Shown here: positions 1-61,550 of the stretch, in pieces
Layout of the letters: the number at the start of each line of letters is the position of its first letter
Position numbering within the stretch: position 1 is the first letter of the stretch
Assembly: GCA_963693365.1 (NCBI GenBank)
Contig: CAVNZM010000002.1
Coordinates: 12,580,328-12,644,327, forward strand
Direction: 5' to 3'
Source: Amoebidium appalachense
Lineage: Eukaryota; Protista; Ichthyosporea
DNA length: 64,000 nt
Translations under genes and position numbers: made by a program
The notes under the pieces: model-generated
The model's input: only the letters and a program-made list of their open reading frames with translations
The model's database searches: none
Told to the model about the DNA's origin: nothing

Positions 1-3000
1 TCTAGACGACCGCACGGTGCTGGTGCTGGCAAGCGCACTCATGGCCTTTGAGGATGTGGTGTGTGGTGTTCCTGTTTTGTAACTCGTAGCGTTTGGGGAT
101 GTGGTGCGTGGTGTTCCTGTTTTGTAACTCGTAGCGTTTGGGGATGTGGTGCGCGGTGTTCCTGTTTTGTAACTCGTAGCGTTTGGGGATGTGGTGCGTG
201 GTGTTCCTGTTTTGTAACTCGTGGCCTTTGGGATTGTGGTGCGTGGTGCTCTTGTTTTTGTAACTCGTGGCCTTTGGGGACTTGTTCTTTTTTGTCAACA
301 TTTTTTTGTCAACGTGGCCTCTGAGGATGTGGTGTGAAGTGTCCCTGTTGTTTTTTGCACCTATGGCCCTAAACGACGTGGTGCATGGTGTTCTTGTTCT
401 GTGTTGCTGAGGTTTATGGGATGTGGTGTGTGGTGTTCCTGTCTGTTTTCCTGTGGTTTATTGGGGTTTGGTATTTGGGATTCCTGTTTTGTTTTCATGA
501 GGTTTGTGGGGATGTGGTGCGTGGTGTTCCTGCTCTGTATTCCTGAGGTTATGTGTGGATGTGGTGTGTGGTGTTCCCGTTTTGTATTCCTGAGGTATAT
601 GGGAATGTAGTGCGCAGTGCAGTGTTCCTGGTTTTTTTAACTTATGGTGCTTGAGGATGTGGTGTACGGTGTTTCTTTTTCTTTCTCGTGACCTAGGATA
701 TGGTGTGACTGTGTGGTATTCCTGTTTCGTAGCTCGGGCGTTTAAGGATGTGGTGGGTGGTGTTCCTGTTTTGTGATTCTCGGCGTTTTAGGTTGTGGTG
801 TGTGGTGTTCCTGTTGTGTAACTCTGGTGTTTGAGGATGTGGTGTGGTTTTCTTGTTCTGTATACCCCCCCCCCCCCCCCCCCCCCCCCCACACACACAC
901 ACACACACCCTTTCCCCACCCTTTCTCCCTGCTCACTCAGACAAACACTCATACGTGCGCGCGCACGCACACACACACTACGCGCACGCACACACATATG
1001 ACACACACACACACACACACACACACACACACACACACACACACACACACATACATGGTCACACACACACACACATGACACACACACACACACACACACA
1101 CACACACACACACACACACACACACACACACACACACACACACACACACACACATGCGCGCGCGAGCGCACATACACACACACGACACACACACTCGCTC
1201 ACACCCCCTCCTCTTCCCCCCCCCCCCCCCCCCCCCCAAACACAAACACACTCCCACCCACCCACACACACCCAGTGCCCAGACCGTCTTGACCTTCTTC
1301 ACAAACACTACCGCAAGCTGTGTGCGCTAGTGGTGGACATGGAGGAGTGGGGGCAGATCACCTGCCTCAACCTGCTGACAAGATACGCACGCACACAATT
1401 TTGCGACCCCAACACCGGCGTATGTCCTCCCCCCCCCTTCCCCCCCCCCCCCCCCCGCGCCAACCACCACCATCCCCCCACCCCCTCTGCCTTGTGAAGG
1501 GAAGCTTAGAGCCTTCCCTCCTCCCCCCGCCCTTTGGGTCTGTTTAGGGGTCTCTTCGCTGCGCTTTTGTTTTGTTTTTATCCTCGTGTATTACCTCACC
1601 CTCCCCCCCCCCCCCCCCCCCCCCCCCCCTCCCCTCCCCCTGGCGCACTGGCAGATAGTTGTTTACTGTTTTCCGCATCCCGTCTTGGGTACGTGGATTT
1701 GGTACCGTGCGTTACTCCCCCCCCCCCCCCACACACACACACACCCACCCACCCACCCACCCACCCCCCCCGCCCACCCACCCACCCACCCACCCACTCA
1801 CCCACCCGCCCTTCTCTTTTCCCTTCCGTTCCCCCTCCCCCCCCCCCCTCTCCCCCCCCCTTTCCCCCGTCGAGGATGGGCTTTACTTGTGATGCATACT
1901 CTTTGGGTGTGATTTGCACTAGCTGCATTATGATGGCGGCCATGAACGTGTACAATTCGTGCTGTCTCTCCCCCCTCCCCCCTTCTTCCCATTCACCGTT
2001 TTGCTCTCATAAGCAAACCTGCTCGTCTCTGATCAAGACGGGTGACCCTCCCAAGGAAAGTTGATACTTCTATCTGAGTTGTTGTTCGTGACGAGGCTAA
2101 GGGGTCGAACCTCAGATGTAATCGATGACTTGGGTCTCCCCTGAGGTGCTGGGCTCTGCTTATTTTGCATAACGCGCGCGTTGCTGATGTTGCATATTTG
2201 AATGTGTCCTGCACCGTGTTTCTCAGCGTGTAGTTGTACTTCGTACCGTGTCCCGCATTCTAACCAAACCCCCCCCCCCCCCCCCCCCCGCATGTGTCCT
2301 TCGTGTATGTGTACTTCGTACTGCGTTCCGCATTCAAACCCCCCTCCCCCCCCCCCCCTCCCCCCCTCCCCTCCTCCCGCGCTTCTTTGGAATACGTGAA
2401 TGTGTGGCTTGTGATCTCACGTGCACACGGGCAGGATGGGGAGGCAGAAGAGGACAAGGACCGACCGTTCTACTCGGACAGCGAAACGGAGGAGTCAGAA
2501 GATGAGAAGCCGGCGGTAGGTGCTTTAGGTGCTTTATATTTATTGATTTAAAGAAGGCTGATGATTGGGTTGATTGTATCGGTGGTGGGGTTTATGGGTT
2601 TATTTTTTTTTTGGAGATGGCATGGGTTGTCTGGTGTATATGACTGATGAGCAATGGTGTTGTTGTTGTTTTTTTTTTTTTTTTTTTTTTTTTGTTTTTT
2701 GCTGTTTTTTTTTCTTTTCTTTTCTTTTGTTTTCTTTCTTTTTTTTTTTTTTGGCCCTCCCTATGAGCAGAAGAAGGGGCGACCCATGAAGGCGGCAATG
2801 TATGCTGTGCCGATCAACCTGTTCCTTTGTTCTTCTTTTTTGTTTTCTTTTTCCTCGCCCTCTTTTCTTTTTGCTTGGTCGTTGTCATTGCTTGCACGTG
2901 CAAGGTTTTCATCTCCTGGGACAGAACGAGAATAGAAGAAATGGTTTTTCCAATCCCTTTTTGGGCCGCGGCTACGGTTGGTGTGAAAAACATGTTCATC

Positions 3001-14065: not shown

Positions 14066-14346
14066 CAGGTATGGGCGGGAAGTTCGTGTTCGTGTTCGTG
14101 TGAAGTTGCGCGCCGATATCTGGACTACACATGACATATAAAAAACAGCCAGACACCACAAAGCGGACATTCTCACATTGATGTATGCATGTTGCGCACA
14201 CACGTACAAAAAGATGTATGCTTGCACCACTCCTTGAATATATATACAGGATATTAAATTAAACGTGTGCGCACAGAGGATACTGTGGAAACTGTACAGC
14301 TGTGCATGTGTGCTTGCACGGGCCCGCCGTGGTCGCGACCAGCACC

Positions 14347-17300
14347 ATGGCACTGCGACAGAGGGGTAACGAGGCCTCTAAACGGCAGGACTACTCGACG
14401 GCCATTCAGGTAAATAAAACCCAAGCTTGTGATATGCCTTTGATACTACCATATATATATCGCCGGTGGGAGAGACCAAGTTTATGCTTTGTTTGCCTAT
14501 CAGTTTTAAAAAAAACACTGAGCAGCATGGGGACGCACGTATGTACGTGCTAAGGCCTGCCATGCACATGCTTAATCAGACACTTCAAGGCGTGCGCTAC
14601 ATTATGCCCGCATGCATATTCTACATTTTTATAATAATAAAAATACGCATACATCGACACACACTCGCACAGAGAGACAGAGAGATAGAGGCAGGGATAG
14701 AGAGAGAAAGAGCTCGAGAGGGAAGGGAGGGGGGAGGGGGGGGTGGGGGTGGGGGGGAAGAGAGAGGGATCTATAGAAAGGTTTAGATTGAGAGAGAGCT
14801 CAAGAGAAAGAGAGGGAGAGGGAGACGCAGGCAGAAAGAGTGAGCGAGGGAGAAAAAATGTAGGAGAAAGAGATGGCGAAAGAGAAAGAGGGAGAGAGAA
14901 AGAAATCAATGACACGCATGTAAGTTGCACACTGGTGCAGCACACACACACACACACACAAACCTGAGGTGGACACTCACAACCATTGCCCACATGCTCA
15001 TGTACTGCAACACCCCCCTCCCTCCCTCCCCCCCCCCCCCCCTCCACATCCCGTACTGGCTACCACGGAAACAACCAACCAGCACGAATGTAGGTTTATG
15101 TTGTAACTCTCAACCCAGTTACTTACACACAAAACATCTGCAGCTTTACACCGAAGCCATGCAAATTAAAGAGAGCCCACCAGCGGCGCTTTACAGCAAC
15201 CGGTCAGCATGCCACTTCCACCTGAGCCAATATGACGAAGCTCTGAAAGACGCAACGGCATGTGTCACTGCTGACCCCTTATTTGCCAAGGGCCATTTCC
15301 GTATGGCAGCCGCCGCATCTGCCCTCGGGAAAAACACTGTTGCTGCACAGGCACTCCTTCAAACAGATGACCCAACACTTCACGAGATATACGAGAAAGT
15401 TCGGCCTGCAAAAGTTTCCAAAGTCCCACTTCGTGTGCATGTTGTGCGAACGAGCAAGTCCCTCCAATTGCAAAACACGTGCTTCCAACCATACCCACTC
15501 GTGGCTATAATGCCCGGGGAGTACACCATAGCGCAGTTAAGGCTATACCACAATAAGGTGTGTGTCGGGTTGGGCAATCCACACATCACATCATTAACCG
15601 ACCACATTTTTTTACGCCATTGAATCCTACGTCGCTCTAGGGGGCCTGACACTAACAGACGGACAAGCAACCGTGGTCGTACAGGGGAACAAGTAGGAGC
15701 TGAGCATGACGGGGTGTCGGGTCGAGGGGAGCGGAGGAGCGGGGGTGCTTGTGGTGGAGGGGTCTAGGGGGACGGTGGAGGACTGTGTGATAGTGCGGGG
15801 GAAGTTTGCTGCCGTGGAGGTTCGTCATGGGGCACAGGTGGGTTTTCATGACCAAGTATTGGGGGACCTGGGCATTCCGGCCCCCCCCCCCCCCCCCCCC
15901 CCCCCTCCCCCCTCCCCCCTTCCCTCCCCTCCTCCCCCTCCCCCCGTTTTTCCCTGCAGAAGGATGAAAGGACCCCCTCCCTTCCCTCTCTAACCCCCCT
16001 TCCCCACCTCTTCCCCGGCCCATTCCCCCTTCTGCCCCAGCAAGGCAAAGATGTCACACACAACATATTCGTTATATGCAAGGGAATGCAAGAAAGCACA
16101 CGCGCAGGCAATCATACATACTTGCATACATCTGGCCATGGCCACGCCTGTGCACTGCTATACACAAGCTTGGACGTGCACGCAGGTGCACACCCACGTA
16201 CGTGCACGTGCAGACATAGTGACACGTGCATGGGCCAACTCATCCATGCGCATGCGAATGAGGGGGCACACCACACGCACAAACATGGCATCTGTTCAAC
16301 GTACACACATGCACACACACAGGTCTACATGCCTGCACGGGCACACACATATAATTTATGTATCAACGGAAACACACACGTTCACCGTATGCACATAGGC
16401 ACATGCGCACATGTATGCACGCAGATATGCACTCGCGCAAGCACATGCATGCACACACCAACACACATGCAACCATATACACACATAGGTAGGCGCTTAC
16501 TCAGACACAGTGATGATTCCCCTCTACATCCACACGTGACCCCCCCCCCCCCTCCCCCTCTTCCTCCCCTCCCACACCCGCCCCGACCTCCCCCCTCCCC
16601 CCTCCCTCACCCACCCACACACACACACACAAACCTCCCCAACACACACCCATTGCATAACCTACGCACCTACATACTCAGGCTGTGGTGCGGGGGACCC
16701 AACTCAGCAACAACAGGCAGGGGGGGTTGGTGTGGGAGAAAGCAACCAGCGCCGTTTTCGAGCACTGTACCATCAGCAACAACTTAGCAGAGGGACTGCT
16801 TTTGGATGGGGCACACCAAAACGCCGCCACACGCATGCAGGCGCGTCTTCCCGGCCCTGGGCGCCAATACCCAACGATGAACGCTGAAGGGGCCTATACA
16901 CCACCTAACGCACCCACCACAGTTCGGCTTTTCTCCAATACAATTTGCAACAATGCACACTATGGAATTACGCTGGATCACGGATGCGTGGCGGAGGTTG
17001 AACAAAACACGGTGGAGAAAAGCGGCCGGCATGGAATTTTCATCAAAGGGGAAACATCAGTGCGGTTGGTTGGAAGCGTGGTTCGCGAAAACCGTGAGGC
17101 GGGGGTCCAAGTTGGTGTAAATTACGACGGGGAGGTGGTGATGGTCGGGAACACGGTGGAGAAAAACCGCAAGGGGAATTTCGTCGAAGAGCGCACTATG
17201 TTTTCGCGGATGGGAATTCCCTCGTACATGTATTCACGCCCTGTGGTGGTGCATGCTGATAATAAGATTGTGGGGTGGGCTGGAAAGGTTACTCCTACCA

Positions 17301-18187
17301 CAACCACCACCACCACCACCATGGCAGTTGACCAATCCGATGCGAGCATTATTGCGGCCCCGCACCAGACAGAAGAGATTGGGGAGTGCAAAGGGTGTGG
17401 AAAGACAGTGGGTGAGCTAGGGAGACCCATGCAGAGGTGTGCGCGGTGCAAGGTGATTGGCTATTGCAACAGAGACTGCCAGCGCAGCGATTGGCCGACA
17501 CACAAGATCACGTGCCGCAGCGGCGACCCCACACAAAACCAAACACAACACATCACGTCAACCACTACCACTCCTACACCTACACCACCCGTCACCGCCA
17601 CAACACCCACCACCACCACCACAGGATTGACATCCGTCGCAACCGCCAAAACCACCGCCGCTCACCCACCACTCTCTGTGCAACCAACAACAACACTCAC
17701 CACCACTACCAACGTGGAGATAGAAGTTCCGCTAAACATTGCTCGACGTGTGCTGTTTGAATACCTACCCTACACCTATCCAATGGGAAACACACCTGCA
17801 TATGACATGACGGAGGGAGTTGTGTGTTTGGGTGAGGATGGGGAGTGGACGGTGATGGGGGAGGAAGGGGAGGAAGGGCGGGGTGAGTTGGAGGGGGGCA
17901 AAGGGGGAGATGAGGTTCGGTGCTATCTTGGTGGGTTGGGGGATGTGAGGAAGATATTGGAAACGGTGTGGGGTGTTACGCAGCGCGGGGCACCGCGAAA
18001 TGTTCTTTTTGTTGCCAACGATATACAGGTGAGTCCTGGTGTTGTGTGTGTATGGGGGGGGTTATATGTAGGTGTGCTTGGCCTTATATGGATTGAACAA
18101 AACAAAAGACAATGCACGTCTAAAAGGTACCAATGTATAATCTACGTGCACGCAGGATGTCGGTGTGTATGTGGGCGAGCTCTGGCA

Positions 18188-18255
<68 letters not shown>

Positions 18256-19189
18256 CGTGTGTTTCATTTTTCTTTTTATTTTCACTTGCGCACACATGTG
18301 CGTGTGTGTGTGTGGGTGCACGTGCATGTGTGTGTATGCTCGTTCGCGTGCTGTGTGGGTGTGTGCGGGTGTATGGGGGCCTTTTGTATAATAGTGTGTG
18401 TGTGTGTGTGTGTGTGCAAGTTATATGCAGGTGTGTGTAGTCGTGGGTGTTGTGTTGAACTCAATCGAAGTTGTGAGTGTGTGTGCGTTTATATGCGAGT
18501 ACACATAGGCTTTTGCAGTGTGTGTGGGGTGCATATGTGTTTGTGTGAGCATGACGGGATCCTCGATAAGTTGTAAACACATGTGCACCTGGATAGTTGC
18601 TATATCAATGTGGATGTGTGGCTCTGATTGCAAGAAGAGTGTATGTGTGTGTGCGCGCGCGCATGTGTGTGGTGGTGGTGGTGGTGGTGGTGGGGGGGGG
18701 GGGGGGGGGGGGGGGGGGGAGGAGGGGGTAGGATACAGATACAAAGATTTACCGTAAGGTGTCGAGTGGTCTTTACTTGGTGCCTGGTGAGCTTCTGCAA
18801 TTTTTTTTTCGTATGTGTATAAGTTTAGTTGGTGCGCTGTTCTGCGGCGTTGATTGTGTTGGGGGGGGATGGAGGGGGGGTGGGGGGGGGGGGTGGGAGG
18901 ACGAGGGGGGGGAGGGAGGGGGGGGGGGGGGGGGGGGGGCAGTGATGAGTTTCAGGTGGAAGGGTGTGAGGGTGTGTGCATGGACGGTGGTGGTGGTGGT
19001 TGGTCAGGGGAGGGTGGGTGGGTGGGTGGGTGGGGTGGTGGTGGTGGTGGGGGGGGGGGGGAGGGACTTGGAGGAGGAGGAAAGGGCGAAGATTAGTTTG
19101 AGGGAGGCTTAGAAGCAGAAGCTCAGTACTGTTATATCATTGGAATATGTTGGTTGGTTTGGTAAGGAGGCTGTGTTTTCCTGCCGGGC

Positions 19190-19225
<36 letters not shown>

Positions 19226-21563
19226 GGGGGGGGGGGGGAGGGGGGGGGGGTAAATGTGTATCAGGGCTCTTGAGCATCTTGGTGCTGCACGATCTTGAAT
19301 CACACACGTGCACATACACACAAACGGCACGCAAGCACACAAACACGTGCCCACACTCACGCACACGCATACACGAACACACACAGGAACACGGATACGC
19401 ACACACACGTGCACACACAAGCACACACACTCGCACATGTACGTCATACATGCACAACACACATGCCCGTGCACCTACGCACACACAAACCAACACAGCA
19501 CACAGAGGTTAAATGGACACAACCACACACCATGTGCTCACACACGCCGTATCGACCATACCATAATATTATTTACACACCGGCACCGATGACCCCCTTC
19601 CTCTCTATTCACACATTCACCCAATGACCCCCCTATCCCCCCCCCCCCCTCCCCCCCCCCCCCCGCCCCCAACCATCACCACCACCACCCCCAACCCTTT
19701 CTAAACCACCCCAATCCGAGAACCCTTCACCTGCTTTCCCCTCTGTCTCCCCCCCTTGTCCTCCAATCCCCAAATAGCATCATATGCCATATCTGCCATT
19801 TTTGGTTACCCTACTCATGAATTGATTGGCTCTTATTTCTCCAGATTGGCATCTTGGCACGGGCTGCACTCCTGCTCTACATGGTGTCTACCCTCCCCGA
19901 CCCCACGACCCAACGCAATCTATATATGGAGGGTGTGAGCACTCTGGCGGCCGTGTGGGGCTCACACACCCTCACCCCCACCCAACGCCATCGATTGGAC
20001 GCGGCACTTAACGAATTAATTCGATTGGTTGCCGCAGACGGCGGCGGTGTGGGCACGTGGTTAGTTGTGCGGGACACGGTGCTAAGGGAGCATTTGATTG
20101 GTGCGTGGAAGCAGTGGCTCACGTGCACCATATCAGCGGAAGACATTCTAGAGCAGCGTAGAAGCGGAATGACACCCCACGCACGCAAATTCGCGACGCG
20201 CATGGCGAATGAAAAACTGCGCGAGTGCGGGCTGAAACAACAAAAACAAAAACAGGCCGACCCAGACCCATCACTCACCACCTACGCAAACGAAGGAAAA
20301 TTGGTTCCCCCGCCGTCGTTGGACACATTTCTCATCGGCGGGAAAGGTGGCAACAGTTCAGAAATGCGCGCCAACACAACGCTTTTGTCGGCCCCGTCGC
20401 TGCGGTATGACGTGCACTACGGCAGTATGGTGTATAACACGTTCGACCTTACCAGCGCACCTCTGGAGAAAGAGCTCCAGGGCGCCCCAAACACCCCCTA
20501 TACCCGCCTGCTAGCGGTGTTGCTATCGCGGTGTGAATGCATGCGTGCGGCGATGCAAAATGTCGCTTTTGGCACAACGGCAAATTTGAACGGACAAATC
20601 AGTGTGAAGATCGAGCTGCGACACGGCGACGCACTCACAGACCTCATGTGTGGGTTGGGTGGGGATAAAAATAGTCTGTTTGATGCGATTGATATGAGCA
20701 ACATCGCTGATAACGTCTCCCTCCCGAACGTGCTGCTGGCCGCGTGCCCGCACCTACGCACACGTCACTCGCGTCTTTACGTGCAGATTATGCATTGGGA
20801 TAAAAACGAATGCAAAATGCGGGATGATATCACGCGCGAGATGGGGGGGTCGGTGGTACAGCGGTTGATGCGAGAGTGGGTGGGGTTCGACGTGGCGGAG
20901 GTGCGAGAGGTAGGCGACGCAAACAGGCACATACACTCCGTGTGGACAAAAACCCCCCTCGACCTGAAATTTCAACCGACACCAGGGTCAACAGTGCGAG
21001 AGAGCGTCGAGAACATTATTCGTGCGTGGGTGGACCACACACCTACTTATGGGGAAAAGCATCGTTTCACCACCGTCCTATCAATTCTCCGATTTCTCCA
21101 CCTCACCGCCACACACCACGGAACCGACCTCATTGAACCAATCATTTCCACCTTGTGCAAAAACCCACCAACGGAGCTAAAACCGCACGTGCAAGAACTC
21201 GCCACCTACGCTGCGCTTTTACGTATTCCCGGTGCACCCCCTACCGTCACGCGAAATTCGCTGCGGCTGTGCAGTGCGGTTTTGACTCTAGTTCCGACTA
21301 TGTTAGGTGCGGGGACGGCGGTGTTGCGTGTGTGCATACGCCCACCACACATAGCGGACGAGTGCTGCGAAAAACCCCCACCACCCACCACCACCACGAA
21401 ATTTCAAGCCAAAAAACGACATGTGCAGTCCGCCACCACGCAAGAGCACGTGCACTTGAACGTTCTGCGCTATGACGTGCACATGGGACGGGTAACGTTT
21501 TTGGTGGAATCTGATTGGTTGAAGAGCCACGGGCGCAATAGAAATATATATGGTAAACGTTAA
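14347..21563 (+). CDS. TPR + right-handed beta-helix + MYND zinc finger + DUF4470-like multidomain protein (possibly disrupted)
   Basis: Exons 14347-14409, 15144-(15557), (15697)-15837, 16682-18028, 19845-21563. TPR: LRQRGNEA..DYSTAIQLYTEAM..LYSNRSACH..YDEALKDA..KGHFRMA. Beta-helix coils: CTISNNLAEG, NTICNNAHYG, VRENREAG. MYND: CKGC..CARCKVIGYCNRDCQRSDWPTHKITC. DUF4470-like: YPMGNTPAYD, GLGDVRKILETV, NDI..LAR, FDAIDMSNIAD. Segment 15558-15696 is ambiguous (see findings). Confidence 0.8.
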
Positions 21564-22459: not shown

Positions 22460-29681
<7,222 letters not shown>

Positions 29682-31192: not shown

Positions 31193-31466
31193 TAATTAAC
31201 CGTCAACACTTTACAGGGGTGATGAGGGTACATGTGCAGCACTATTAAGGGATACGGGATCGCGCGGCTCGAATACTTTCTGGCGCCGCTCAGATCGATA
31301 TCTATCTGGATTGAGTGGGCTTGATCTGCCTATTGGGCACCTAAGATCGTGTGGCCGAGCTATACCATGTACACACGGCATGCCACACACGTGTCCGGAC
31401 AAAACTGCGCTGCACATTTTTCATGAAGGCGGGTTGTTTTCTAACTATATATGTTAGGCACTCACA

Positions 31467-33383
31467 ATGCCAACTTGCGCGGCTAACTACTGCAAAAATG
31501 ACGAAGAAACAGTCTCTCCCAAAGATCCTACCAGGAAGATAAAGCTTTTTACTGTTCCATATGGATACAAACCAAATGTATTGGCTAGGAGGCATGCTTG
31601 GTTAAATGCTATAGGCAGGCAGGAGCAAACAAAGTATGAGCGGAAACAAATAGCAGAACACACAAAGCAAGCACCCCCCGACCCAGACACACACACAGAC
31701 ACAAGGCCAAAGGCCTCGGATGGGACAGACGTAAATACAGACACAACCACTACTGAGACACACACAGCTGACACACAATCCGAAAATGCCAATGACTCGG
31801 CTGTGCCAGCTGAGCAGTCGGCACAAGAACCACAACCAAAGAGGAAACGGGGGCAACCGAAGGTGGAAGTCCCCTGGCCACTGGCTATCCTTAAGCAACT
31901 GGTTGTATGCGAGGCACATTTCACCGATGATGATATTACTGCTAAGAATGGAAAACTGAAATTAACAAAGGATGCATGTCCCATCCGAATGGAACTAGAC
32001 CCGATGTACAGAGAGAAGGTACAGCTATTGAGGGAGGAAAGGGCCAATAGTCATATGCAAGCTGTAGGAATGGATGCCTCAGATATTGAGCAAACACGGA
32101 AACGAGCGAGGGAGCGGGGGGAGACGAGCAGTGAAGAAGCAGAGGACAGTGAACGAGCGAAAAGAAGGAGGGAACATGTGCGTGAAAGGACATTTGACTA
32201 TCTAGAGTCGAAGGCAGGTGAGGAAGGGATGGATGTAGAGGATTATGTGAATGTCCTGGAACGTTCAAGAGCTTTCTATAAGGAGCAGGCGGAGAAAATG
32301 CAAATCGAACTTGAGATAGCTACGAAGCAATTGGAGGAAAATGAGAAGAAACAAAGATTGGAGAAGAAGGAGCTCGAACAAGCGCTTGATCAAGCGAGGG
32401 AGGAATTACTACAAAACCAGAAAAGAATATGCATGGAGGACATAGTGGCGGAAGAGGAAGGGAAGGCTAGAGATGATGTGGTGAAAACATACACGGGGTT
32501 GGATAGTTTTGATGCTCTCATGGGAGTGCTGGGGATTGTTGCTTTTATTGGCCAATCAACTATAAACATGAATGATTTTAAAACCAAAACAGGAAAGGAA
32601 ATAATATGGCATGATGGATGTCTTTTTACACTTTTTCGCCTCCGCCACGGCACATCCTTCCAACTATTGAGTCGGCTGGTGGATGTGTCAGAACCGAATC
32701 TTTCGCGTATATTCCGCCATTTTCTTGGTGCACTGGCGTTAGCACAGGTTTTTCTATACGAAAAAGCCCCCACCAGAGAGCAACTTTCGAAGTTTAAAGC
32801 CGGTTGCTACACTGGGCAATGGGACGATGTACGGTGGATCATTGATTGCACCGAGGTGTTTGTACAGGTGCCGACAAACCTCCTTCTGAAACGATGTTTC
32901 TACTCAGAGTACAAAAGCAATTACACTCTCAAGTACTTCGGGGGCATCACAACGGATATGAAACTCAGACCGGTGTCCGATGCACATGTGGGGGGGTTCA
33001 AAGACCCGGATCTCACAGGTGTATGCAAGCGTGAATTTGTAGATCAGATAGAAGAGGGGGATGAAATAGCAGCTGATAAAGGGTTTAGAGTGCACGGGCT
33101 AATCATGGAGAAGGGTGCTTCCTTGATATTACCGTCGTTTGTTGAGCATGGGCAGCTAAACGCTGAAGACACCATATATAGCCAAAGACTGTCTAGTGTG
33201 CGCGTGCATGTGGAGAGGGCTTTTGGGCGCATGAAAAATTATCGGCTGTTTAGCAATCAGGTGCAGATGTCGATGGTAGGCACCCATTGGATGGTAGCTA
33301 AGGCTGTGGCTTTCTTGTGTAACATGCAAGAGCCACTATATAAAGATATGGTGGGGCCCGGGCACACCAAAAGCATGGTGTAG
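31467..33383 (+). CDS. THAP-HTH-DDE (DDE_Tnp_4-type) transposase, 638 aa, intronless and uninterrupted
   Basis: THAP: CAANYC..F.VP..W..AI..VVCEAHF..DACP. Coiled-coil region follows. HTH: TLFRLRHGTSFQLLSRLVDVSEPNLSRIF. Catalytic motifs: IIDCTE, YSEYKSNYTLK, AADKGF, RVHVERAFGRMKNY. Confidence 0.93.
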   Translation: MPTCAANYCKNDEETVSPKDPTRKIKLFTVPYGYKPNVLARRHAWLNAIGRQEQTKYERKQIAEHTKQAPPDPDTHTDTRPKASDGTDVNTDTTTTETHTADTQSENANDSAVPAEQSAQEPQPKRKRGQPKVEVPWPLAILKQLVVCEAHFTDDDITAKNGKLKLTKDACPIRMELDPMYREKVQLLREERANSHMQAVGMDASDIEQTRKRARERGETSSEEAEDSERAKRRREHVRERTFDYLESKAGEEGMDVEDYVNVLERSRAFYKEQAEKMQIELEIATKQLEENEKKQRLEKKELEQALDQAREELLQNQKRICMEDIVAEEEGKARDDVVKTYTGLDSFDALMGVLGIVAFIGQSTINMNDFKTKTGKEIIWHDGCLFTLFRLRHGTSFQLLSRLVDVSEPNLSRIFRHFLGALALAQVFLYEKAPTREQLSKFKAGCYTGQWDDVRWIIDCTEVFVQVPTNLLLKRCFYSEYKSNYTLKYFGGITTDMKLRPVSDAHVGGFKDPDLTGVCKREFVDQIEEGDEIAADKGFRVHGLIMEKGASLILPSFVEHGQLNAEDTIYSQRLSSVRVHVERAFGRMKNYRLFSNQVQMSMVGTHWMVAKAVAFLCNMQEPLYKDMVGPGHTKSMV

Positions 33384-34020: not shown

Positions 34021-34026
34021 TTACTG

Positions 34027-34074
<48 letters not shown>

Positions 34075-34785
34075 ACACATTATGTTGTACTTTGTGCTTC
34101 TGGTAAAAACATCGGCGGGGGTTACAATCACTCCGTACAGTTTGGGAATGCGCACCGCATTAGCGGTCCCAGGGATGACCGCCGCATCCGCAATGCGCAG
34201 TTTGTATACAACCCGCGGGATGTTATACAGAAGAAGGTCGGCATCCTCAGTGACAACAGTGTGTGCCAAACCGGTACGTGCCATATAGGCAAGCTGGGGG
34301 TCTGCTTCGTATGGAGCTACTGTGTAATCGACATTCTCATCTTTCAGTCTAAGGATGATTGCATGTAAAACTCTGTTATCTAACTCTGCAGCGCTTCTCC
34401 ATTTGTTTTTAGTTACCTCCTCCTGTTTCTCTCTTTTTGTGGCTATTTCTTGGCGGGCTTTGACCACCTTTTCTGCACGGTCGTTATCAACTAGTTTTCC
34501 CTCTTTCAATCTGCGCCCATCAAACACATAGTGTGGCTGGACCCCTGCTAGCCTATACGTATTAACTTTGGACATAAAGTGATTTGCAATAGCTGCATAT
34601 GTGTCGTCTGTGACTTTTTTGTCATCTATTTGCTGTTTGGCTACTGTGTCAGCGAAAACTGAAAAGGACTTGTGGACCTGCACCATCCCGTCAAAAGCAA
34701 CTACCCCACGTTGCAACTCTGCAGTAACATCTGTGGCTTTTTCGGCACTAATGCCGAGTGCTGGGAGCAAGCCCTGCACACCCAT
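34021..34785 (-). CDS. EXO1/XPG/FEN1-family 5' nuclease domain inside the transposon (C-terminus truncated or spliced)
   Basis: MGVQGLLP, VAFDG..VHK, HYVFDG..K..R, VAPYEADPQLAYM, VVTEDADLL are the XPG-N/XPG-I signatures, most like EXO1. Similarity ends near 34085 where the ORF runs into a microsatellite. No helix-turn-helix GxDY motif was found. Confidence 0.85.
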
Positions 34786-35259
34786 GGTAAAAGTGCATGT
34801 ATTCAAAGTAGTTTCTTTTCATGAAAAAAATTCTTTCGGGTTGTGCGCCCTCTGCGTTAACGTGCGAACACAAAAATCGTTGTACGGCGTGGGTGCGTAG
34901 CAACGCGTTACGTAATCAGGGGGAAAAAAGGCGGCGCCAGAAAGAAATCGGGGACCACTCAAAATCGCCGATCCCGTATCCCTTAATGTACCTGTACATG
35001 TGCACATGTGCTTGAGTTTTTGGTCTGCTTGTGTGTGGTTTGTGTGTGTGTGTGCGTGTGTTTTGGGGAGGAAGGGAGGGGGGGGGGGGGGGGGGGGGGA
35101 GTTGGGGGAGGAGGAACATGGAAGTAATGACACACTTGAAACAAGAAAACACGCTGGAAACCACAACATTGTGTTTGCACAAATGACAATTGAAACACTC
35201 AGAGGCCACTGGGTCTTAGCTTACCATCACGTGAGGGGGCATCTATGCGTGTACACAAA

Positions 35260-39024: not shown

Positions 39025-39795
39025 GATGATGAAAGATGTACAAGCAGAAGACGAACAGAGCCCATCATCACGGCGGCTTTTGTGTCTCCGAAAGAATGGG
39101 TTTCGAATCTTAAACCTCTTGCACGTGGTTCCCAACCCACACTTTGTTTCAGCGGCAATAGGCGAGTTACCCGAGTCAACCCGATATGGCCAAAGACGAA
39201 CAAAAATGTTCAAGAAGCATCAATCTAAAAGCTCAAAACCCAAAATACACGAAACAATAAATTAAAAGGGAAAACAAACGGAGGGAGGGGGGTGGGGAGG
39301 AGGGGGGAGGGGGGGAAGTTCAAGGTCAACGCCAAGAGAAAGGGTAACAAGTGAGACAGGAGGGATTATGGACAGAGGCAGGAGGGGGGAGTGAGAGAGA
39401 GAAAGGGGGGAGGGGGTGTTAGGGTGCGAGGGGTTAGGGTGGCGATGGAGGAGGGGGGGAAGAGAGAGAGAGGGGGGGGGGGGGGGAGAGAGGGGGGAGA
39501 GGGGGGGGGGAAGAGAGAGGGGGGGGGGAGAGAGGGGGAGAAAGAGGGGGGGGGAGAGAGGGAGGGAGAGAGGGGGGGGGGGGGGGGGGGGAGAGAGGGG
39601 GAGAGAGAGGGAGAGAGAGGGAGGGAGGGAGGGAGGGAGGGAGGGAGGGAGGGAGGGAGGGAGGGAGGCAGGGAGGGAGGCAGGGAAGGAGGGAGGGAGG
39701 GAGGGAGGGAGGGAGGGAGGGAGGGAGGGAGGGAGGGAGGGAGGGAGGGAGGGAGGGAGGGAGGGAGGGAGGGAGGGAGGAGGGAGAGAGAGAGG

Positions 39796-44008: not shown

Positions 44009-45978
44009 AGGGGAGGGAGGGATGCGGGGAGGCCGGGGGACACGTATTGAATGATTTCTGTCGTTGGCGAGTCTCCTGCGCATGCCCCCCCCCCCCCCCC
44101 CCCCTCCCCCCCCACGGCCATCTTGATGCTGTTTAAGATGACCGTGCCCCCCCCCCCCCTCCCCCCCCCCCCCCCCCCCCCTTGGGCCCCTACTATCTTT
44201 CTCTTGAAAGATAGCTAGGCCTCTCCTTCGAAGTCATGTTTGCCGGATGAGCAGATCTAGAGTGCAGCACTGCGTATACGCTGTCGTCGCGGTAGAGCCA
44301 TACACAAAACGGGATAGCTAGTAGCTATCTCAAGATGATTTATTGTTAATATGACAATGACGCGTGTCTACACTTGGCCGTTTCGATTTCAATCAATGGC
44401 CATCATGGCCAGTGCTGTCTGTACTGTGTGTCACATGTACAGGCCGTACATGTTTGTGTGTGTCACCCTGTCGGTGCGCGCGCGTGCGCACATGTGCATA
44501 TGCCATGCATCGGGGCATCCACCAAAAGACAACAGACGTCCAATGTCCAAGGCCTTTCTAATCACCGAGCTAAGGGCTCTAGGCAGCTACAAAAAAGATA
44601 GCCTATGTTCACCCTGTGTGATCACACATACGCGGCATACCTTTCGCGTTTGCCTGGAATACACTCAAAGAGCGCACGCTCGCGCACGTCGTACATGCCC
44701 GACCATACGGTGGGGGGAAAGGCGGAATTTCGAATCATCTGCTACATATAGGTTTAAGCAAAAACGTTCATTATGAGTGGCTTTGGGTGTTGAAGCATGT
44801 GCAGAACAAAAACATAGCGTGTACACACCGAGCAGGCTCTGAAATTAGGGGGCTTAGGGCCAGAAAATTGGAAATGCCCCTGAAAGTCCGAAAATTGTCC
44901 CTAACTTTTCAAGGTTAGGTCCATCGATTTCTGAAAAATTGGCCCTAACAGAACCAAACATATTAGAAAAGTGGCACCTAAAAACGGTTGTTGGCTCTAC
45001 TAGGGCCATCCAGGCTGGTGGAGAGCTGCCAAAATGGCACTAGCCAAAAACAAATGTCACACCCAGACACCGAGTACACACACACATAGATTTAGATCTG
45101 ATCTGATCACTCGAGCTTGCTTGCATTCCAACGAAATACCTCACATTCTGTGTAGGTAGCACGCTGGAGCCAGAGCCACGACCCCTCCCCACCGCCCACC
45201 CTCCCCCTCTCACCCCACCCCCTCCTTCCCCTTCCCTTTCCTTTCCTGTTCAAACTACCTTGTAGCGTAAGCCTGTCTCTCTTCCTTTTTCTTTGCCAGG
45301 AACAACTCATCTTTCAAAGGCGTCGGTATTTTGTAGATGTGATCACATAGTACGTACGGAAGGGGACGCACCACAACAATGCCATGCATCCGGAAGGAAT
45401 TCTGCTTGGGAAGCGCTGTTGTCGTATGAATGAGCAGACTTACTATTTAGAAAAACTCGGAGAGCTATTGTTTGTTTTATTTGGTTTTCCTTCTTTTGTT
45501 TGTTTTTGAGTCTCGCATGAAAAACAGGGAAGGGGCGATGAAACGTCTCGTAAAAATAGCCGGCTCAGGCGGGCCTAGGGGTCCGGGATACTCGGAGGTC
45601 CAATCATAATCGATAACGTACGGACCAATCAATTTGCTACAAACCATCAGCCAATCAAATGTTCATCTTTGGCGTTATCTGCTTATATAAAATTGTATAT
45701 CTATCGCAGCTATAAATATACATGGGGGTTTACGCTGTTTACTCGAGGCAAAGAATATACATCATGCGCTTAGGAGATGTGACCTATGCTCACTGGACTA
45801 CGCACATCCAATTATCAACGCAAAGAAATGTAAAAAATAGATACACAAGAATTGTGAATTAGAAAATGCAAGCAGTGTCAAACCTGTTGAAACATTGAAA
45901 AATTTGAACACCTTGGAGCAGGAATGTATCAGGTGGTATGTTCTCCAATCATATCTTTTCCCTTGGAGACTAAATGTG

Positions 45979-46013: not shown

Positions 46014-46311
46014 TAGCATAGCCGCCCAGTCGTCATCACTCCACCTCGACTCATTCCACTTTCCTCTCTTGGTCATGTTTGCTTTGAGCTAAACAAGCCA
46101 ACATTACTCGAGCTCGCAAGGTTCGGAGCATATCCTTTGAGAGTACTACAACTGAATTGAATTTGTTCCACGTCTACAACAGTCTGCAATTAAATTATTA
46201 TCATCTAGTGTTACATCTAATATACGGTGCCCACGGCGCCTTAGCACTGCTCCTTTTGCCGACGAATTCTTTTTCTATTTAAGTTACCAAGAGTCAAAGC
46301 AACCAACCAAT

Positions 46312-47121
46312 ATGGCATCACTCAGACAAATCAGCCTTATGGCCCTATTGCCTTGTGCACTTTCCCTTCCAATCACCACACCAGACAACATCCTGCAAGG
46401 GGTCGCCAGCGCTACCGCCGGATCCGAAAGAAACATTTTTGTTGAAGCGAGCAACGGTGGCTCCCTGCCAAACTTCATCCCAGGCCCCCCAGTTCCACCC
46501 CCACCCACACGAGTGCAATCCGCAGTTAAGCCGGGCCCCAAGGATATTGACGGCCCACCCCCACCTTCCGGTCCTTTCACCGATGTTCAAGCACTCCGCG
46601 ATGCTTTTTCAGGTGCCCCATTCGCCGCGGCAATGCCAGCTGCCCCCGGAGGCAACCGCAATTTAATCAACGTAGACGCCTACACGGCACAGTACCCTCA
46701 GTCTATTTTCAGAGAGGGTGACTTTATTACGTCGTCTACAGGGCTTACGGGTGCGTGTGGGTATGCGCTTCGTATCCAACTAGACCAGAACGTAGTGATC
46801 GTGCACGAGGGAGGGGACAGTCATCCTGTGTGGTCTCTCAACACGGCAAACCAGTGGCCTGGAATCGACGTAAACACTCTGCAAATTCAGTTCAAACAGG
46901 GGCATCTCCGCCTAGTTTCAACCAAAAGCCCCAATAGAGTTCTGTGGGAATTAAAGGCGCCTGCAACTGGTGTTGCTGCTCTCATGGGACCCAACGGGAA
47001 TTTGGTGATTGTTGACGCCTCCGGAATGATTTTGTGGAACACCCGAGGTTTGAACACTGAAGTGTGTGTCGATGGGCTCCCGTTTTGGAGCGGGGCAGAG
47101 AAGGATAAATTGCAACAGTAG
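46312..47121 (+). CDS. Secreted Pro-rich protein with a C-terminal bulb-type (B) lectin-like domain, intronless CDS
   Basis: Signal-peptide-like N-terminus, Pro-rich linker, degenerate QxDxNxVxY-type repeats: LRIQLDQNVVIV..PVWSLNT and LMGPNGNLVIVDASGMILWNT. Confidence 0.75.
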   Translation: MASLRQISLMALLPCALSLPITTPDNILQGVASATAGSERNIFVEASNGGSLPNFIPGPPVPPPPTRVQSAVKPGPKDIDGPPPPSGPFTDVQALRDAFSGAPFAAAMPAAPGGNRNLINVDAYTAQYPQSIFREGDFITSSTGLTGACGYALRIQLDQNVVIVHEGGDSHPVWSLNTANQWPGIDVNTLQIQFKQGHLRLVSTKSPNRVLWELKAPATGVAALMGPNGNLVIVDASGMILWNTRGLNTEVCVDGLPFWSGAEKDKLQQ

Positions 47122-47570: not shown

Positions 47571-47604
<34 letters not shown>

Positions 47605-47869: not shown

Positions 47870-47910
<41 letters not shown>

Positions 47911-48383: not shown

Positions 48384-48418
<35 letters not shown>

Positions 48419-49354: not shown

Positions 49355-49973
49355 TGGGGATCCAATCGTTCTCCCATGATTTTACGTCATCGGATCGTGT
49401 TTTGTCCAATCAGGTGCGAGGGGACTTCCGGCGTATGGACTTGTGAGTTTAATCAACTCCCCCCCCCCCCCCCCCCTCCCCCTGGCGCCACAGTTGTGCT
49501 CCATAATATGCCGTCACCTCTCCTCCCTGTTTTCGCTCCGCTTCCCTAAGTCAACCCCCTTTCCCCCCTCTCTTCCCACCCCCTCTTCCCTCTTCCCCCC
49601 CCCCCCCCTCCCCCCCCCCCCCTCCTTCCCCCCCCCCCTCCCCCCCCTCCTCCCCCCCCCCCCCCCCCCCCCCACGATAACAAGACTCTTTCCTTCGTTC
49701 CCATTGTGTACCAAGACCTGTCCGTGCAGAACATCTTCTTTGTTGTCAAACTTTCAAGACGATATACATCTGCCAGCTCTTCCCACCCTCGCCCCCTCCC
49801 CTCCCTCCAACCCCAATAACTTTGATATCTTTTGTGCTGTGTGTGTGTGTGTGTGTGCGTGCATCCGTGAGTGCGTGTGCATGTGTGTGCGTGAGTGCGT
49901 GTGTGTGTGGGTGTGTGCGTATGTGGTTGCGTGCGTGTGTCCGTTTGTGTTGTGTGTACGTGTGTGTGTGTTT

Positions 49974-50012
<39 letters not shown>

Positions 50013-50078
50013 CGTGGGTGCGTGCGTGTGTGCGTGTGTGCGTGCGTGTGTTTGTGGTGTGTGTGTCTGTGTGTCTGT

Positions 50079-50111
<33 letters not shown>

Positions 50112-50969
50112 GGCACATGTGTTTAATCACTTACTTTATAAAACTCTTCCAAACAATTCGGCTTATGCAACACTGTCCATTTCTGTTTGATTATGAATAA
50201 CGTAACATGCAGTGAAAGAGAGCATGATTGCTGTAGACTTTGTGAGCAAAATTTGTGGTGTGTACTATGAAATGCAACTGTATTCATCCTATGTGTACCA
50301 CTATGAAAGGGCATTGTGTTTGGGGTACCCGGGCCGGTGGTGTGCTACTGTGCATGTGGGTGTAGTTGTGCAACGCCTGTGTTCTCATCCTTTGTGGTAT
50401 GCTTGTCACACGTGTTCTGTACATATTCACTTCCAGCGACTATTTTCTCGTACATACCTTTGGTAGTGCAGCCACACGTCATATGTGCGAGCTGCAGGTG
50501 TGTGTTGTATCGTTTGTCTCGGCGCACATGCATACATGTTCAATTCTGGTGTGACTTTGGTGCCACTGTGTTTGTGCTGCCATGTGTTCTTGTCTGCGAT
50601 GCGGAATAATATACTTATAAAGGCGTATTTTATATTGTGTCCAACATGACTTGGTATTATTTTTGCTGTATCTGTTGGTGGCGGCCAGCGCATCACCAAA
50701 GTAACAGTTTTGAATTCACACTCTTTCTGTCGAAGGTGGGAATAGATTTTGAGGTAGATATGCAAATATATGATAAATGGTCGAGCTCGAGCTCTTCAAG
50801 CAGTAGTATTCTTTTGAATTCTATTTACACAGGACCTTATTGCTATTGCAGCTGTTCTGATCCAGTTGAAATTTCTGTCTCAGTAGCGGTTTTGACGTGC
50901 ATAACGATTTTGGAGGATAACTTATAAAAGTCACTACCTATTTACACTGTCAACTTAGTAAAAAGTTGT

Positions 50970-51731
50970 TTAACAGTCACTGAAGCCGCTGCCAGAGTTA
51001 TACTTCATGCTGATTCCGTACTTGGATGCCTGGCTGCACGCACTCGATCCAGCAGAGTACTCAACGCCAAACACAGCCTTGCCATGTGCCTTGAACGAGC
51101 TGTAGTAGTCGCACTCGCCAAAGCGCGTGCAGCTCTCGTTGATGGCAAAGTCGAAGCTGCCCTCGAGACTCTTCATGATCTCAAGTGCGTTCTTTAACCC
51201 AATAAGCATGCCCTTGCTGTGTGCCGTCTGTGCCAGCCAGCGTGCATACTCGATCTCGTCCTGTTTCAGTTCTGACTGCGATTTGTCGACGCAGTTGTTG
51301 AGGAAACAGTCCATGTTGTCTGCCTCGACACCGGCACATCCTTCAGAGCGCATCCTGTCCATTCTCTTCTCCATGATAGGTGCAAAGTCACGCCACCGGG
51401 TGATGTCGAGCCAAGACTCGCCGGTGTACTTGGACTTCTCGCTGGTGTAGGGCTTGAGTTCAGATGCGTCTGACCGCCAGTTCTCGGCTGTGCCTGCGCT
51501 CATGTAGCACACGACGGTAGAGCCGGAGTAGGAGCCGGGGTTGCCGTTGCTTTTGTCGAGGTCGATCATAACGGCATCTTTGCCGTGTGCGTCTGAGGTG
51601 GAGTCGATGTTCCCCCATGCAAGGTTGGCCCATGAGGCGCCTGTGTGCAACCCGGAGCTGCGGCGTGTGGTGGAGGCAGAATCTGCCACAAAAACACAGG
51701 CGAAAAGCGCGATAGTGGTGGTGATCATCAT
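50970..51731 (-). CDS. Secreted glycoside hydrolase family 114 (endo-alpha-1,4-polygalactosaminidase-like), ~253 aa, intronless CDS
   Basis: Signal-peptide-like MMITTTIALFACVFVADS. GH114 motifs VCYMSAGTAENWRSD, GESWLDI, GVEADNMD, AHSKGMLIGLKN, FDFAINESC..FGEC, GKAVFGVEY. The longer ORF-track start is upstream read-through. Confidence 0.9.
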   Translation of the reverse strand: MMITTTIALFACVFVADSASTTRRSSGLHTGASWANLAWGNIDSTSDAHGKDAVMIDLDKSNGNPGSYSGSTVVCYMSAGTAENWRSDASELKPYTSEKSKYTGESWLDITRWRDFAPIMEKRMDRMRSEGCAGVEADNMDCFLNNCVDKSQSELKQDEIEYARWLAQTAHSKGMLIGLKNALEIMKSLEGSFDFAINESCTRFGECDYYSSFKAHGKAVFGVEYSAGSSACSQASKYGISMKYNSGSGFSDC

Positions 51732-51927
51732 GTTGGCTGAAAAGAGAGAACTATAACTAAAGTCAAAGTGGTTTCGTGTGTTATTACCGGGTATATGACA
51801 ATATGATATCGAGATTTGCAAACTAGAGAGGAGAATGGGTGATTGGGATCCAAACGATGTATACTTGAAGACAAGGTACAGTTGATTACTGTCAACTGTA
51901 TTGTTGTTGTGCTGTTGAGGTGATGAA

Positions 51928-51991
51928 AACTGACACATAATGCGACTGATTATATAGTTGGAGGCCGTGTGAGATCGCGTGTGATGATTGG
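51928..51991 (-). promoter_or_regulatory. CCAAT-TATA-Inr core promoter candidate for GH114
   Basis: On the minus strand: CCAAT 51991-87, TATATAA 51956-50, TCAGTT 51933-28. A TTTTCAG acceptor-like site just before the ATG suggests a 5'-UTR intron. Confidence 0.5.
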
Positions 51992-52799
51992 CTGTCATCT
52001 CAGAAAGTATTTTTGTCACTGCCCGGGCTGCAAGCGAAAAGCCTTCTTGTGCTACGCTACTGTAATAGTGGCTGTGCCATTTGTAGTAATATCTAATGGT
52101 ATGTCACACTAGCACTCGCAAAAAGACAAAAAAAAAAGTAGAAAATAAAAAATAAACTGAGCTTGTTTATTCATGGTTGAAGTAAACGCAAAAAGAAATC
52201 GATGTCCCCCAGCGGTCATACTCATCACTGTATCCGAGTTCGCGGCCCTGCCCGGGCAAGCACGGGCGTCATACCAACCAATCACAAAGCAGATCGGTCC
52301 TCGTGTTTTCTCACAGTTTCAAGCAGATCTAAGTGCGAGAGACCAATCACAATCGTGAACACTGGGTAGCCAATCAGATTAATGATTTTTATCACACCGC
52401 AAGTCAGCTGCGGATGAATTTCGACTGAACTTGCTGCCCAGGGCTGCCTGCCAGTCGACAGCCAGAGCCCTGCCTGCCTGCAGCTATCTGATGTCTGAGC
52501 TCGCCCTGTCTGCAGCTGGTTATGTCGAGGAGTCGAAATACCTGCCTGGCTGTAGCCCGGGGACATAGTCTAGTCTTATGGAAATCTAGCCCGTCTTTAC
52601 CTCAGCAAACAGGCAATGGAACAACAAACACACGCAAGCACAGTGACGGCAGAACAAGCAGTGCAGCTGACGCACACAAACACACGGTTGATCACAATCA
52701 CATCTCACTGGGCCACACACCCGCACACGCACACACACACCGTGGCACACACGCACACACGCACACACACACACACACACACACGCATACACGCACACT

Positions 52800-52830
<31 letters not shown>

Positions 52831-53445
52831 CAAGCACACACACGTGTACACACAGTCACACACATGTACATGTACACAACCGCACACGCTGTGATCATGG
52901 CACACGCAACGTTAATATCATCATTAGAGCCCATCGTCAGACAGGTCCTCCACGAGGTTGCAGATGTGTGTGTGTGTGTGTGTGTATGTGTGACACTGTG
53001 TGTGCGTGTGTGTGTATGTGTGTGTGCACGTGAGCGTGTGTGGTTTTGTGTATGTGTGTGTGTGAATATGTGCTTGTGTGCCGGGAGGAACAGAGGTGTG
53101 TGTGTCGGGGGGAGCAAATAGGAAGGGGAAGGAAGGGGAGGGTTTTCATAAGAGTCAAAACTGTTTCAGTTAAGTCTTCAGCACATGACATATCCCAGCA
53201 CATGAATCATTGAGTTAGATCAGTTTTATTATCGTCAAAAGCCGCTGTCAGATTCTTGTGTATGCACCGCACACACATTCTGTTCTCAAACTGTGTAAGA
53301 CACCAACTGTACAACACCCAAAAGCCCTCTATCCTGCACACTCTACAACTTTATGCCTGCTTCCCAGGTCGTGTACTGCGGTCCAACCCCTCCCCTTCCC
53401 CCCCCCCCCCCCCCCCCCCCTTCCCCCTCCCCCCCCCCCCCCCCC

Positions 53446-53479
<34 letters not shown>

Positions 53480-53747
53480 ATGTGCAGAAAATTAAAAGAA
53501 AGGAAACAGATACACACAAAGACACAAAAACACGAAGGAAAACAACTCATCTTAATTCAACTAGCAAGCGGTCCCGTGAACCGTTGATGCATCCCCCCTC
53601 CCCCCCCCCCCCTCTCCCCCCCCTCCTTCACAAATTACGCCTCACCTATACACGCATCTCCCCCCCCCCCCCCCCCCCCCCCCTCCCCACCTCCCCCTTC
53701 TCCTCTCCTCCTCCCACCCCCTCCCCCCCGGCCCACACACACACACT

Positions 53748-61069
<7,322 letters not shown>

Positions 61070-61250
61070 TTTGACGCTGCCTGCCTGGACCAAAACAAAC
61101 AAAAAAAAAGGAAAAAAACAACGGGGGAAAAAAGGGGGGAGGGGGGAGGGGGTGTCAGCGAGGGGGAGGAGTATCGAAACTAGAGAGGGTGAATGGGAGA
61201 ATGGGAGAGGGAGAGAGGGAGAGAGGGGGGGGGGGGGGGGGGGGGGGGGG

Positions 61251-61550
61251 GTTTGAATGCGGAACACAGTACGAAGTACGCATACACGATGAGAAGCATG
61301 GTGCAGAACACATGCAAAGGCAAACATTCAAGTATGCAACATCAGCCATGCGCACAGTATGCGTCATAAGCAGAGCCCATCCTCAGGGAGGGCCCAAGTC
61401 ATCAATTGCGTCTGAGTTTCGACCCCTTAGCCCGCGTATATACGACGCTCCAACTCAGACAGCAGCATTAACTGGACTTGGGTGGGTCAACCCGTCTTGA
61501 TCAAAGACGAGCAGGGTTGCTTATGCAAGCAAGGTGAGCAAAACGGTGAA
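61251..61550 (-). ncRNA. Intronic structured RNA repeat, copy B; complete hammerhead-like core in permuted order (candidate ribozyme)
   Basis: Minus strand, upstream of the CAG acceptor before the CHTOP-like ATG exon (presumed 5'-UTR intron). GTCTGAG-TT|GGAG (putative cut 61452/61451), GGGTC-GAAA-CTCAGAC (GAAA 61420-17), CTCC-CTGAGGA (61386-80), GACCC (61488-84). Outer stems CATAAGCA/TGCTTATG, GCTCGTCTT/AAGACGGGT, CCCAAGTC/GACTTGGG. Confidence 0.65.

Follow-up and report, generated by a model that had tools for sequence, protein, structure and literature searches.

The stretch of Amoebidium appalachense DNA analysed here (64,000 nt of contig CAVNZM010000002.1, hereafter the window) carries a family of short repeats, most of them in the introns of its genes. 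Our analysis points to a Penelope-type retroelement that is high-copy and likely non-autonomous. Its RNA contains all the core nucleotides of a hammerhead ribozyme in the block order S-G-C; the core is most likely split open between A9 and G10.1, and self-cleavage is predicted after a GUU triplet. We give this reading a probability of roughly 0.7. An earlier note on the same DNA (the original prediction) had described a structured-RNA family, which the fold bears out, though the ribozyme itself was not identified there.

The core contains every conserved hammerhead element: the GUU site, GAAA, CUGANGA, the G10.1-C11.1 pair, and stems I, II and III, which measure 4, 5 and 8 bp in subfamily A and 3, 5 and 10 bp in subfamily B. 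The core nucleotides (CUGANGA, GAAA, and NUH with A15.1-U16.1) are present in copy 4 and in the majority sequences of both subfamilies. Copy 4 is the only window copy with an intact core; copies 1–3 each carry one or more lesions. The block order S-G-C, a non-circular one, was first read from the alignment and then confirmed with a descriptor that accepts hammerhead blocks in any order. From 5′ to 3′ the strands are those of the closing helix, hairpin Y, the stem II 5′ strand GACYC, the interaction stem, stem III/GUU/stem I, the stem II 3′ strand/GAAA/stem III, the interaction stem, stem I/CUGANGA, and the closing helix. In the split fold, the interaction stem links the outer ends of stems I and II with 8 bp in A and 5 bp in B. 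By analogy with other hammerheads, copy 4 would be cut between 61452 and 61451.

The any-order descriptor matched copy 4 and both majority sequences, always as SGC, and matched none of copies 1–3, the reverse strands or the reversed decoys. It gave a single match in the whole window, and 1 and 6 matches in 20,000 shuffles. A split-core descriptor matched the same three sequences; run on 50,000 shuffles of each of two sequences, it matched none. No match to Rfam 15 was found over the window at gathering scores; when E-values up to 10 were admitted, copy 4 drew a single match (E = 10) and copy 2 drew none.

Alignment of the near-full copies recovered the two subfamilies that had been proposed, and the helices differ between them in a compensatory manner. 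Stem II is GACCC/GGGUC in A and GACUC/GAGUC in B, and the interaction stem is CCCAAG/CUUGGG in A and CCUAU/AUAGG in B. Compensatory changes also occur in stem III and in the closing helix, where the covariation reported earlier, CAUAAGCA/UGCUUAUG against CUUGAACA/UGUUCAAG, proved exact. The CUGAUAA of copy 2 was predicted beforehand to be a private lesion. Contigs aligned to this copy bore the prediction out, with 12407 A>G in more than 99% of the summed depth and in four of four sequencing runs. The subfamily B majority also mends stem III (12332, 12372 and 12373) and hairpin Y (12284). Loose contig ends at 61403 and 61490 indicate at least one further subfamily, which keeps GACCC and GGGUC-GAAAC and differs in arm sequence.

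The 3′ strand of stem II has two possible partners, the upstream GACYC or a GGCUCU lying 2 nt after CUGANGA. Duplex energies for the upstream and downstream partners were −7.1 and −5.1 kcal/mol, respectively, in A, and −5.0 and −6.0 kcal/mol in B; as these are similar, the sequence of the window does not by itself single out the split form. The upstream helix is Watson-Crick throughout, shows a two-sided change between the subfamilies and can coexist with all the other helices. Only the weaker register, the downstream one with its 2-nt insert, keeps A9 contiguous with stem II; the split fold does not. The tie is broken toward the split form by the Naiad 3′ ends published by Craig et al. 2021 (PMC8557442, File S5). 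In the ends of coral, ctenophore and octopus elements, the split layout is readable by eye (Amil, Bfor, Obim and Ovul; 4 of the 15 Naiad ends viewed). In the coral end, Amil, stem II is formable only with an upstream strand, and the closing helix comes directly after A9. Four further ends (2_Nbra, 3_Nbra, Hpol and Smim) read by eye as unsplit type CSG with a covarying stem I, a type previously described from two metagenome sequences (PMC10085705). The core is thus most likely split between A9 and G10.1, with stem II using the upstream strand and two helices in between.

It could instead be that the RNA is a type-SGC hammerhead without a split, in which 2 nt are inserted after A9 and stem II consists of GGCUCU with RGRGUC; the upstream GACYC and CCC would then form an off-switch that keeps single intronic copies from cutting the pre-mRNA. 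Such wiring fits the descriptor in copy 4 and both majority sequences, has a similar duplex energy, and obeys the assumption in PMC10085705 that hammerhead blocks are uninterrupted, with inserts of at most 1–2 nt; the off-switch would also account for tolerance in the sense orientation. We consider it unlikely, however. Three of the six pairs in the downstream helix are G-U in A, and this helix has no two-sided change, whereas the upstream helix has one. By eye, moreover, no downstream strand could serve in the Amil and Ovul ends.

A monomer would not necessarily cut, because the arm joining stems I and II to stem III looks strained in it and because dimer-only hammerheads are known. The ribozyme might then be active only in a dimer or tandem transcript, its strands swapped into classical type III and II wiring and its single copies inert by design. 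Dimer-dependent hammerheads described for Penelope-like elements (PMC4209133) and axolotl retrozymes (PMC7229834) set a precedent, head-to-tail joints exist, and in our reading of the folds the arm hinge differs in position between subfamilies while the total arm length is similar. Against this, each tandem joint rests on a single contig, and published SGC ribozymes cleave in cis, some joining the interaction stem directly to stem III (PMC10085705). Activity confined to dimers therefore seems improbable to us, and would alter the active unit rather than the identity of the motif.

The family is high-copy. In three DNA runs, 5,069, 3,904 and 9,133 contigs aligned to copy 4, and 1,431, 995 and 1,716 to copy 2, these figures being counts of contigs and not copy numbers. 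One additional run, whose RNA status was guessed, gave 242 and 75 contigs on the copies and, as contigs reveal neither RNA ends nor strand, was not used as evidence of expression. The loose letters past the 3′ end were C runs in every DNA run listed for copy 4 (38, 11 and 23 contigs), and likewise for copy 2 (10 and 18 contigs); C runs also precede truncated copies (11 contigs, copy 2). In the window, a search with a tail model showed variable 5′ ends and coinciding 3′ ends, and the 30 nt downstream of 14 of the 17 copies are more than 60% C. As the flanks are homopolymeric, target-site duplications are unreadable. By eye, tail-like segments precede copies 1, 2 and 4, and two contigs join a tail directly to a head, one contig per joint. 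Truncated 5′ ends, a common 3′ end and poly-C flanks together suggest a non-autonomous Penelope-type element. The proposal of a mobile RNA resembling a retrozyme or short interspersed nuclear element is supported, in that the family has a permuted hammerhead fold, truncates at the 5′ end, is flanked by poly-C and is high-copy; a retrozyme proper would have a type I hammerhead in each tandem unit, whereas here the order is SGC and the window contains no tandem array.

In the mechanism that we propose, cutting after GUU would free unit-length RNA from tandem, longer or read-through transcripts, a mode of release that has been proposed for hammerheads of Penelope-like elements (PMC4209133). A reverse transcriptase-endonuclease related to those of Naiad and Chlamys would presumably then copy the RNA into (C)n tracts. 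Homologues were sought elsewhere with two patterns. The first found no locus in either viral or metagenome contigs; the second found 1 viral and 25 metagenome loci, none of which (0 of 26) scored with the family's hidden Markov models, and which we read as prokaryotic or phage coding sequence.

Profile searches of the window identified 17 copies, four near-full and 13 fragments, where about nine fragments had been counted before (Table 1). The near-full copies were found by nhmmer at 1993-2266 (+), 12251-12539 (+), 39229-39034 (−) and 61539-61249 (−), in agreement with the positions first named. A second profile, of the tail, was trained on most of the fragments themselves, so that the first nhmmer search is the independent support. 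In that search the weakest fragments were 52863-52943 (E = 0.085) and 28103-28185 (E = 0.026), the latter reaching E = 2.8 × 10−5 with the tail model. The reversed window served as a decoy and gave two matches with the tail model, at E = 0.025 and 0.6; no opposite-strand match in the window was better than this decoy level. General repeat finding was swamped by simple repeats. As read, 16 of the 17 copies are predicted to be unable to cut, 13 being without most of the core and three near-full copies having core lesions. In copy 1 these are GAAC for GAAA, CUGAGGU with an insert, and a shortened stem I strand; copy 3 additionally has a stem II mismatch and a local duplication.

Table 1. Repeat copies in the window and parts of the predicted ribozyme in copy 4
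Feature	Position	Strand	Remarks
Copy 1	1990..2266	+	Subfamily A; damaged core; ends in TTCTAAC and poly-C
Copy 2	12179..12539	+	Subfamily B; last AP3B intron; GACUC 12303-12307, GUU 12335-12337, GAAA 12367-12370; G8 mutated, CUGAUAA at 12402-12408
Copy 3	39034..39262	−	Subfamily B; DTD1 intron 1; C3 mutated (GUGAUGA)
Copy 4	61250..61642	−	Longest unit, of subfamily A; a tail-like 5′ segment is followed by a core of ~160 nt, a tail of ~110 nt and poly-C
Tail fragment	1868..1968	+	Immediately 5′ of copy 1
3′-end fragment	2295..2340	+	Flanked by two C runs
Tail fragment	3422..3549	+	Terminal TTCTAAC is sole CTRAY of the intron's AG-free zone
Tail fragment	4043..4129	+	From profile searches
Tail fragment, diverged	5231..5327	+	From profile searches
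Tail fragment	6688..6796	+	Terminal TTCTAAC is sole CTRAY of AG-free zone
3′-end fragment	7785..7841	+	From profile searches
Tail fragment	24333..24429	+	SLC25 intron
Tail fragment	26692..26786	+	SLC25 intron; terminal TTCTAAC is sole CTRAY of AG-free zone
Fragment	28103..28185	+	SLC25 intron; begins immediately after a C run
Weak fragment	52863..52943	−	Intact CUGACGA; 805 nt past CHTOP-like stop codon; 3′ untranslated region or intergenic
Tail fragment	56907..56986	−	CHTOP-like intron
3′-end fragment, 34 nt	60747..60780	−	Identical to copy 4; flanked by two C runs
Closing helix, 5′ strand	61518..61525	−	Pairs with 61372-61365
CCC	61516-61514	−	Pairs with GGG 61378-61376
Hairpin Y, 8 bp	61491..61511	−	Directly 5′ of stem II strand
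Upstream stem II strand GACCC	61484..61488	−	G10.1 is 61488; pairs with 61425-61421
Interaction stem	61475..61482	−	Pairs with 61400-61393, tying stems I and II together at their outer ends
Block S	61448..61461	−	Stem III strand, GUU triplet 61454-61452, stem I strand GGAG
Block G	61409..61425	−	Stem II strand GGGUC, GAAA 61420-61417, stem III strand
Block C	61380..61390	−	Stem I strand CUCC and CUGAGGA 61386-61380

All 17 copies lie on the strand of the gene that contains or precedes them, as had been claimed. Fifteen fall within 13 of the 32 coding introns drawn. Copy 4 lies upstream of the CHTOP-like ATG, before a pyrimidine tract and an AG, and probably sits in an intron of the 5′ untranslated region. 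The further claim that no copy is intergenic may fail for the weak fragment beyond the stop codon of the CHTOP-like gene. The host is a eukaryote whose genes are rich in introns. The DTD1 gene was checked exon by exon against an identical transcriptome-derived protein, which places copy 3 in its first intron; a DTD1 exon is ~70% identical to fungal and animal proteins alike. The other gene models were drawn by hand on GT-AG, with some exon ends off by 1–2 nt. The names AP3B, SLC25 and CHTOP-like follow the original prediction and are tentative; three short exon probes found no match in Pfam.

The orientation bias had been called surprising. It is real in the window, but less surprising because, over five gene spans, C runs on the sense strand outnumber G runs (94 vs 36). 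If insertions pick C runs at random, 16 sense copies of 16 would have P ~0.002, and if by coin 1.5 × 10−5, both values overstating the significance since the copies are non-independent. Copies would mostly land and persist in sense because the C runs of introns are sense-biased, and their persistence may be helped by the lost or broken ribozyme of most copies and by a 3′ end, TTCTAAC and poly-C, that resembles a host branch site and pyrimidine tract.

Tracts of (CA)n are strongly sense-biased over the same five gene spans (71 CA vs 13 TG) and often reach the 3′ AG, and a degenerate tandem repeat with a unit of ~45–50 nt occupies 1-865 (+) inside an AP3B intron. At 14346-21563 (+), a large long-exon gene encoding beta-helix and MYND domains has no repeat copy, and in it G runs slightly outnumber C runs. 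Upstream of DTD1, short exons with GT donors at 44640-45400 (−) suggest another intron-containing gene; true intergenic DNA is therefore likely less than the 23.5 kb outside the five gene spans.

Besides the near-equal duplex energies and the strained arm, several observations weigh against a split-core hammerhead carried by a Penelope-type element. Stem I is only 3–4 bp in the window family, and only 2 bp in the Bfor end. Minimum free energy z-scores of single copies were unremarkable in three of four (0.53, 0.32 and 0.39), copy 4 scoring −3.18. The displayed text of 7 of the 15 Naiad and all 3 Chlamys ends viewed holds no complete motif; as these ends were picked partly by label or motif, parsed by eye and named from file order, they are non-random and the fractions are not frequencies. 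A second group of subfamily B contigs stops ~90 nt earlier, at T runs (12439-12440), and not at the C-run end (12527-12539); these are candidates for a shorter form or for a second target type. No autonomous partner encoding a reverse transcriptase with a GIY-YIG nuclease and sharing the 3′ end was found among the 11 open reading frames or exons scanned in the window, the larger frames of which encode a THAP/DDE transposase, an XPG-type nuclease, a beta-helix/MYND protein and a GH114 protein. Finally, the strand bias of C runs accounts for only part of the sense bias, leaving the P of ~0.002 given above, and an avoidance of introns has been reported for vertebrate retrozymes (bioRxiv 10.64898/2026.07.22.740005).

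The 3′ end of the element matches the host branch-site motif and may supply branch sites, although the evidence is suggestive only. The AG-free zone that precedes the 3′ splice site contains the terminal CTAAC in 6 of the 13 copy-bearing coding introns, and no other CTRAY occurs there in five of these six; TTCTAAC also occurs 27 nt before the 3′ splice site in two introns without a copy. The association is partly trivial, because poly-C by its composition contains no AG or CTRAY, and 12 of the 32 introns have no CTRAY in the zone at all. These same observations are the ones to be weighed for a splicing element domesticated by the host, in which sense copies would be kept for their branch points and pyrimidine tracts and the hammerhead would be a relic. 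We hold this to be very unlikely as an identity: the core is perfect in the majority sequences but decays in single copies, as in a selfish element. Domestication, the other possibility raised originally, is at most secondary given core lesions in three of the four near-full copies, and it survives in so far as the 3′ end may supply branch sites.

Residence in introns, and in sense only, within the window would suit an intron-encoded RNA of small nucleolar type or an introner, and the 3′ half resembles J4/2-P2 of a ribozyme like that of hepatitis delta virus (HDV) (CUAAG or CGAAU before GGGUC). We give these identities hardly any credence. The copies do not coincide with intron ends, the window has no match in Rfam at gathering scores, and, by eye, P3/L3 of HDV is absent from the core alignment and the subfamily B majority is without the catalytic C. 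HDV-like ribozymes, group I/GIR1, RNase P/MRP, 5S, signal recognition particle RNA, riboswitches and group II domain 5 were also dropped by eye against consensus motifs.

Three further features of the window were noted. An intronless THAP and DDE_Tnp_4 (Harbinger-like) transposase frame at 31458-33383 (+) faces an XPG/exonuclease-type frame at 34021-34818 (−), and the two are possibly one DNA transposon. At 50970-51730 (−), an intronless, secreted-looking GH114 glycoside hydrolase gene stands in this intron-rich genome, and horizontal acquisition is possible. An open frame of 321 codons at 46156-47121 (+) has no Pfam match.

If the RNA cleaves, it would widen hammerhead architecture, as the core would accommodate an entire domain between A9 and G10.1, and would form a class outside the six permutations given in PMC10085705, invisible to Rfam and to standard descriptors. 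The split core, if true, would explain why Naiad-type elements were scored as without hammerheads, and would carry non-circular permutations beyond metatranscriptomes, into a eukaryotic genome in which they are abundant. In addition, the family offers a testable case for asking how self-cleaving parasites survive in pre-mRNAs in the sense orientation and may reshape splicing signals. In the literature searched, which did not cover the possibly relevant Weinberg 2015 (PMC4509812, cited elsewhere for hammerheads that carry additional helices) and Lunse 2017 (PMC5785218), no description of a split-core or genomic SGC hammerhead was found. A more ambitious account, which we regard as possible but rather doubtful, is that of an ancient split-core hammerhead of the Naiad/Chlamys branch, breaking the published permutation rule and extending beyond animals to protists. 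Its non-autonomous carrier would occupy ~40% of introns in sense, silent as a single copy, and would supply branch sites to many host introns.

The closest published ribozymes are those of type SGC (HRIMA-1 and variants), a non-circular permutation validated in vitro and described from metatranscriptomes, not from genomes of known organisms (Eckert et al. 2023, PMC10085705). The window family shares their block order, all core nucleotides, and a stem that ties the outer ends of stems I and II. It differs in the linker from stem I to stem II, which has a hairpin and is 22 nt in copy 4 and 21 nt in copy 2, as opposed to ~3 nt. It most likely differs also in that the 5′ strand of stem II lies upstream and block C is interrupted by two helices, an arrangement at odds with the assumption of that paper.

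Among elements, Naiad and Chlamys are described as lacking canonical hammerheads, some having core halves 35–50 nt apart, and many Chlamys families favour (C)n targets (PMC8557442). The window family resembles them in its probable split layout, readable by eye in some Naiad ends, and, as in Chlamys, in its (C)n preference and frequent 5′ truncation; non-autonomous members are known there also. By contrast, the labels in that source are only 'core' and 'half core', and here the host is an intron-rich protist and no coding partner was seen among the window frames and exons scanned. Like the retrozymes without long terminal repeats (PMC7229834; Li et al. 2026, bioRxiv 10.64898/2026.07.22.740005), the family is a short non-coding hammerhead repeat, of ~270–390 nt, and likely Penelope-dependent. 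Those retrozymes are type I, arranged in tandem arrays and enriched between genes, whereas the present copies are permuted, mostly dispersed, truncated and intronic. Intronic residence is shared with the amniote hammerheads in RECK and C10orf118, which differ in being single conserved loci with classical wiring (PMC3088659). What is specific to the family described here is that its host is a protist, its target (C)n, its bias towards sense in introns and its end a branch-site motif.

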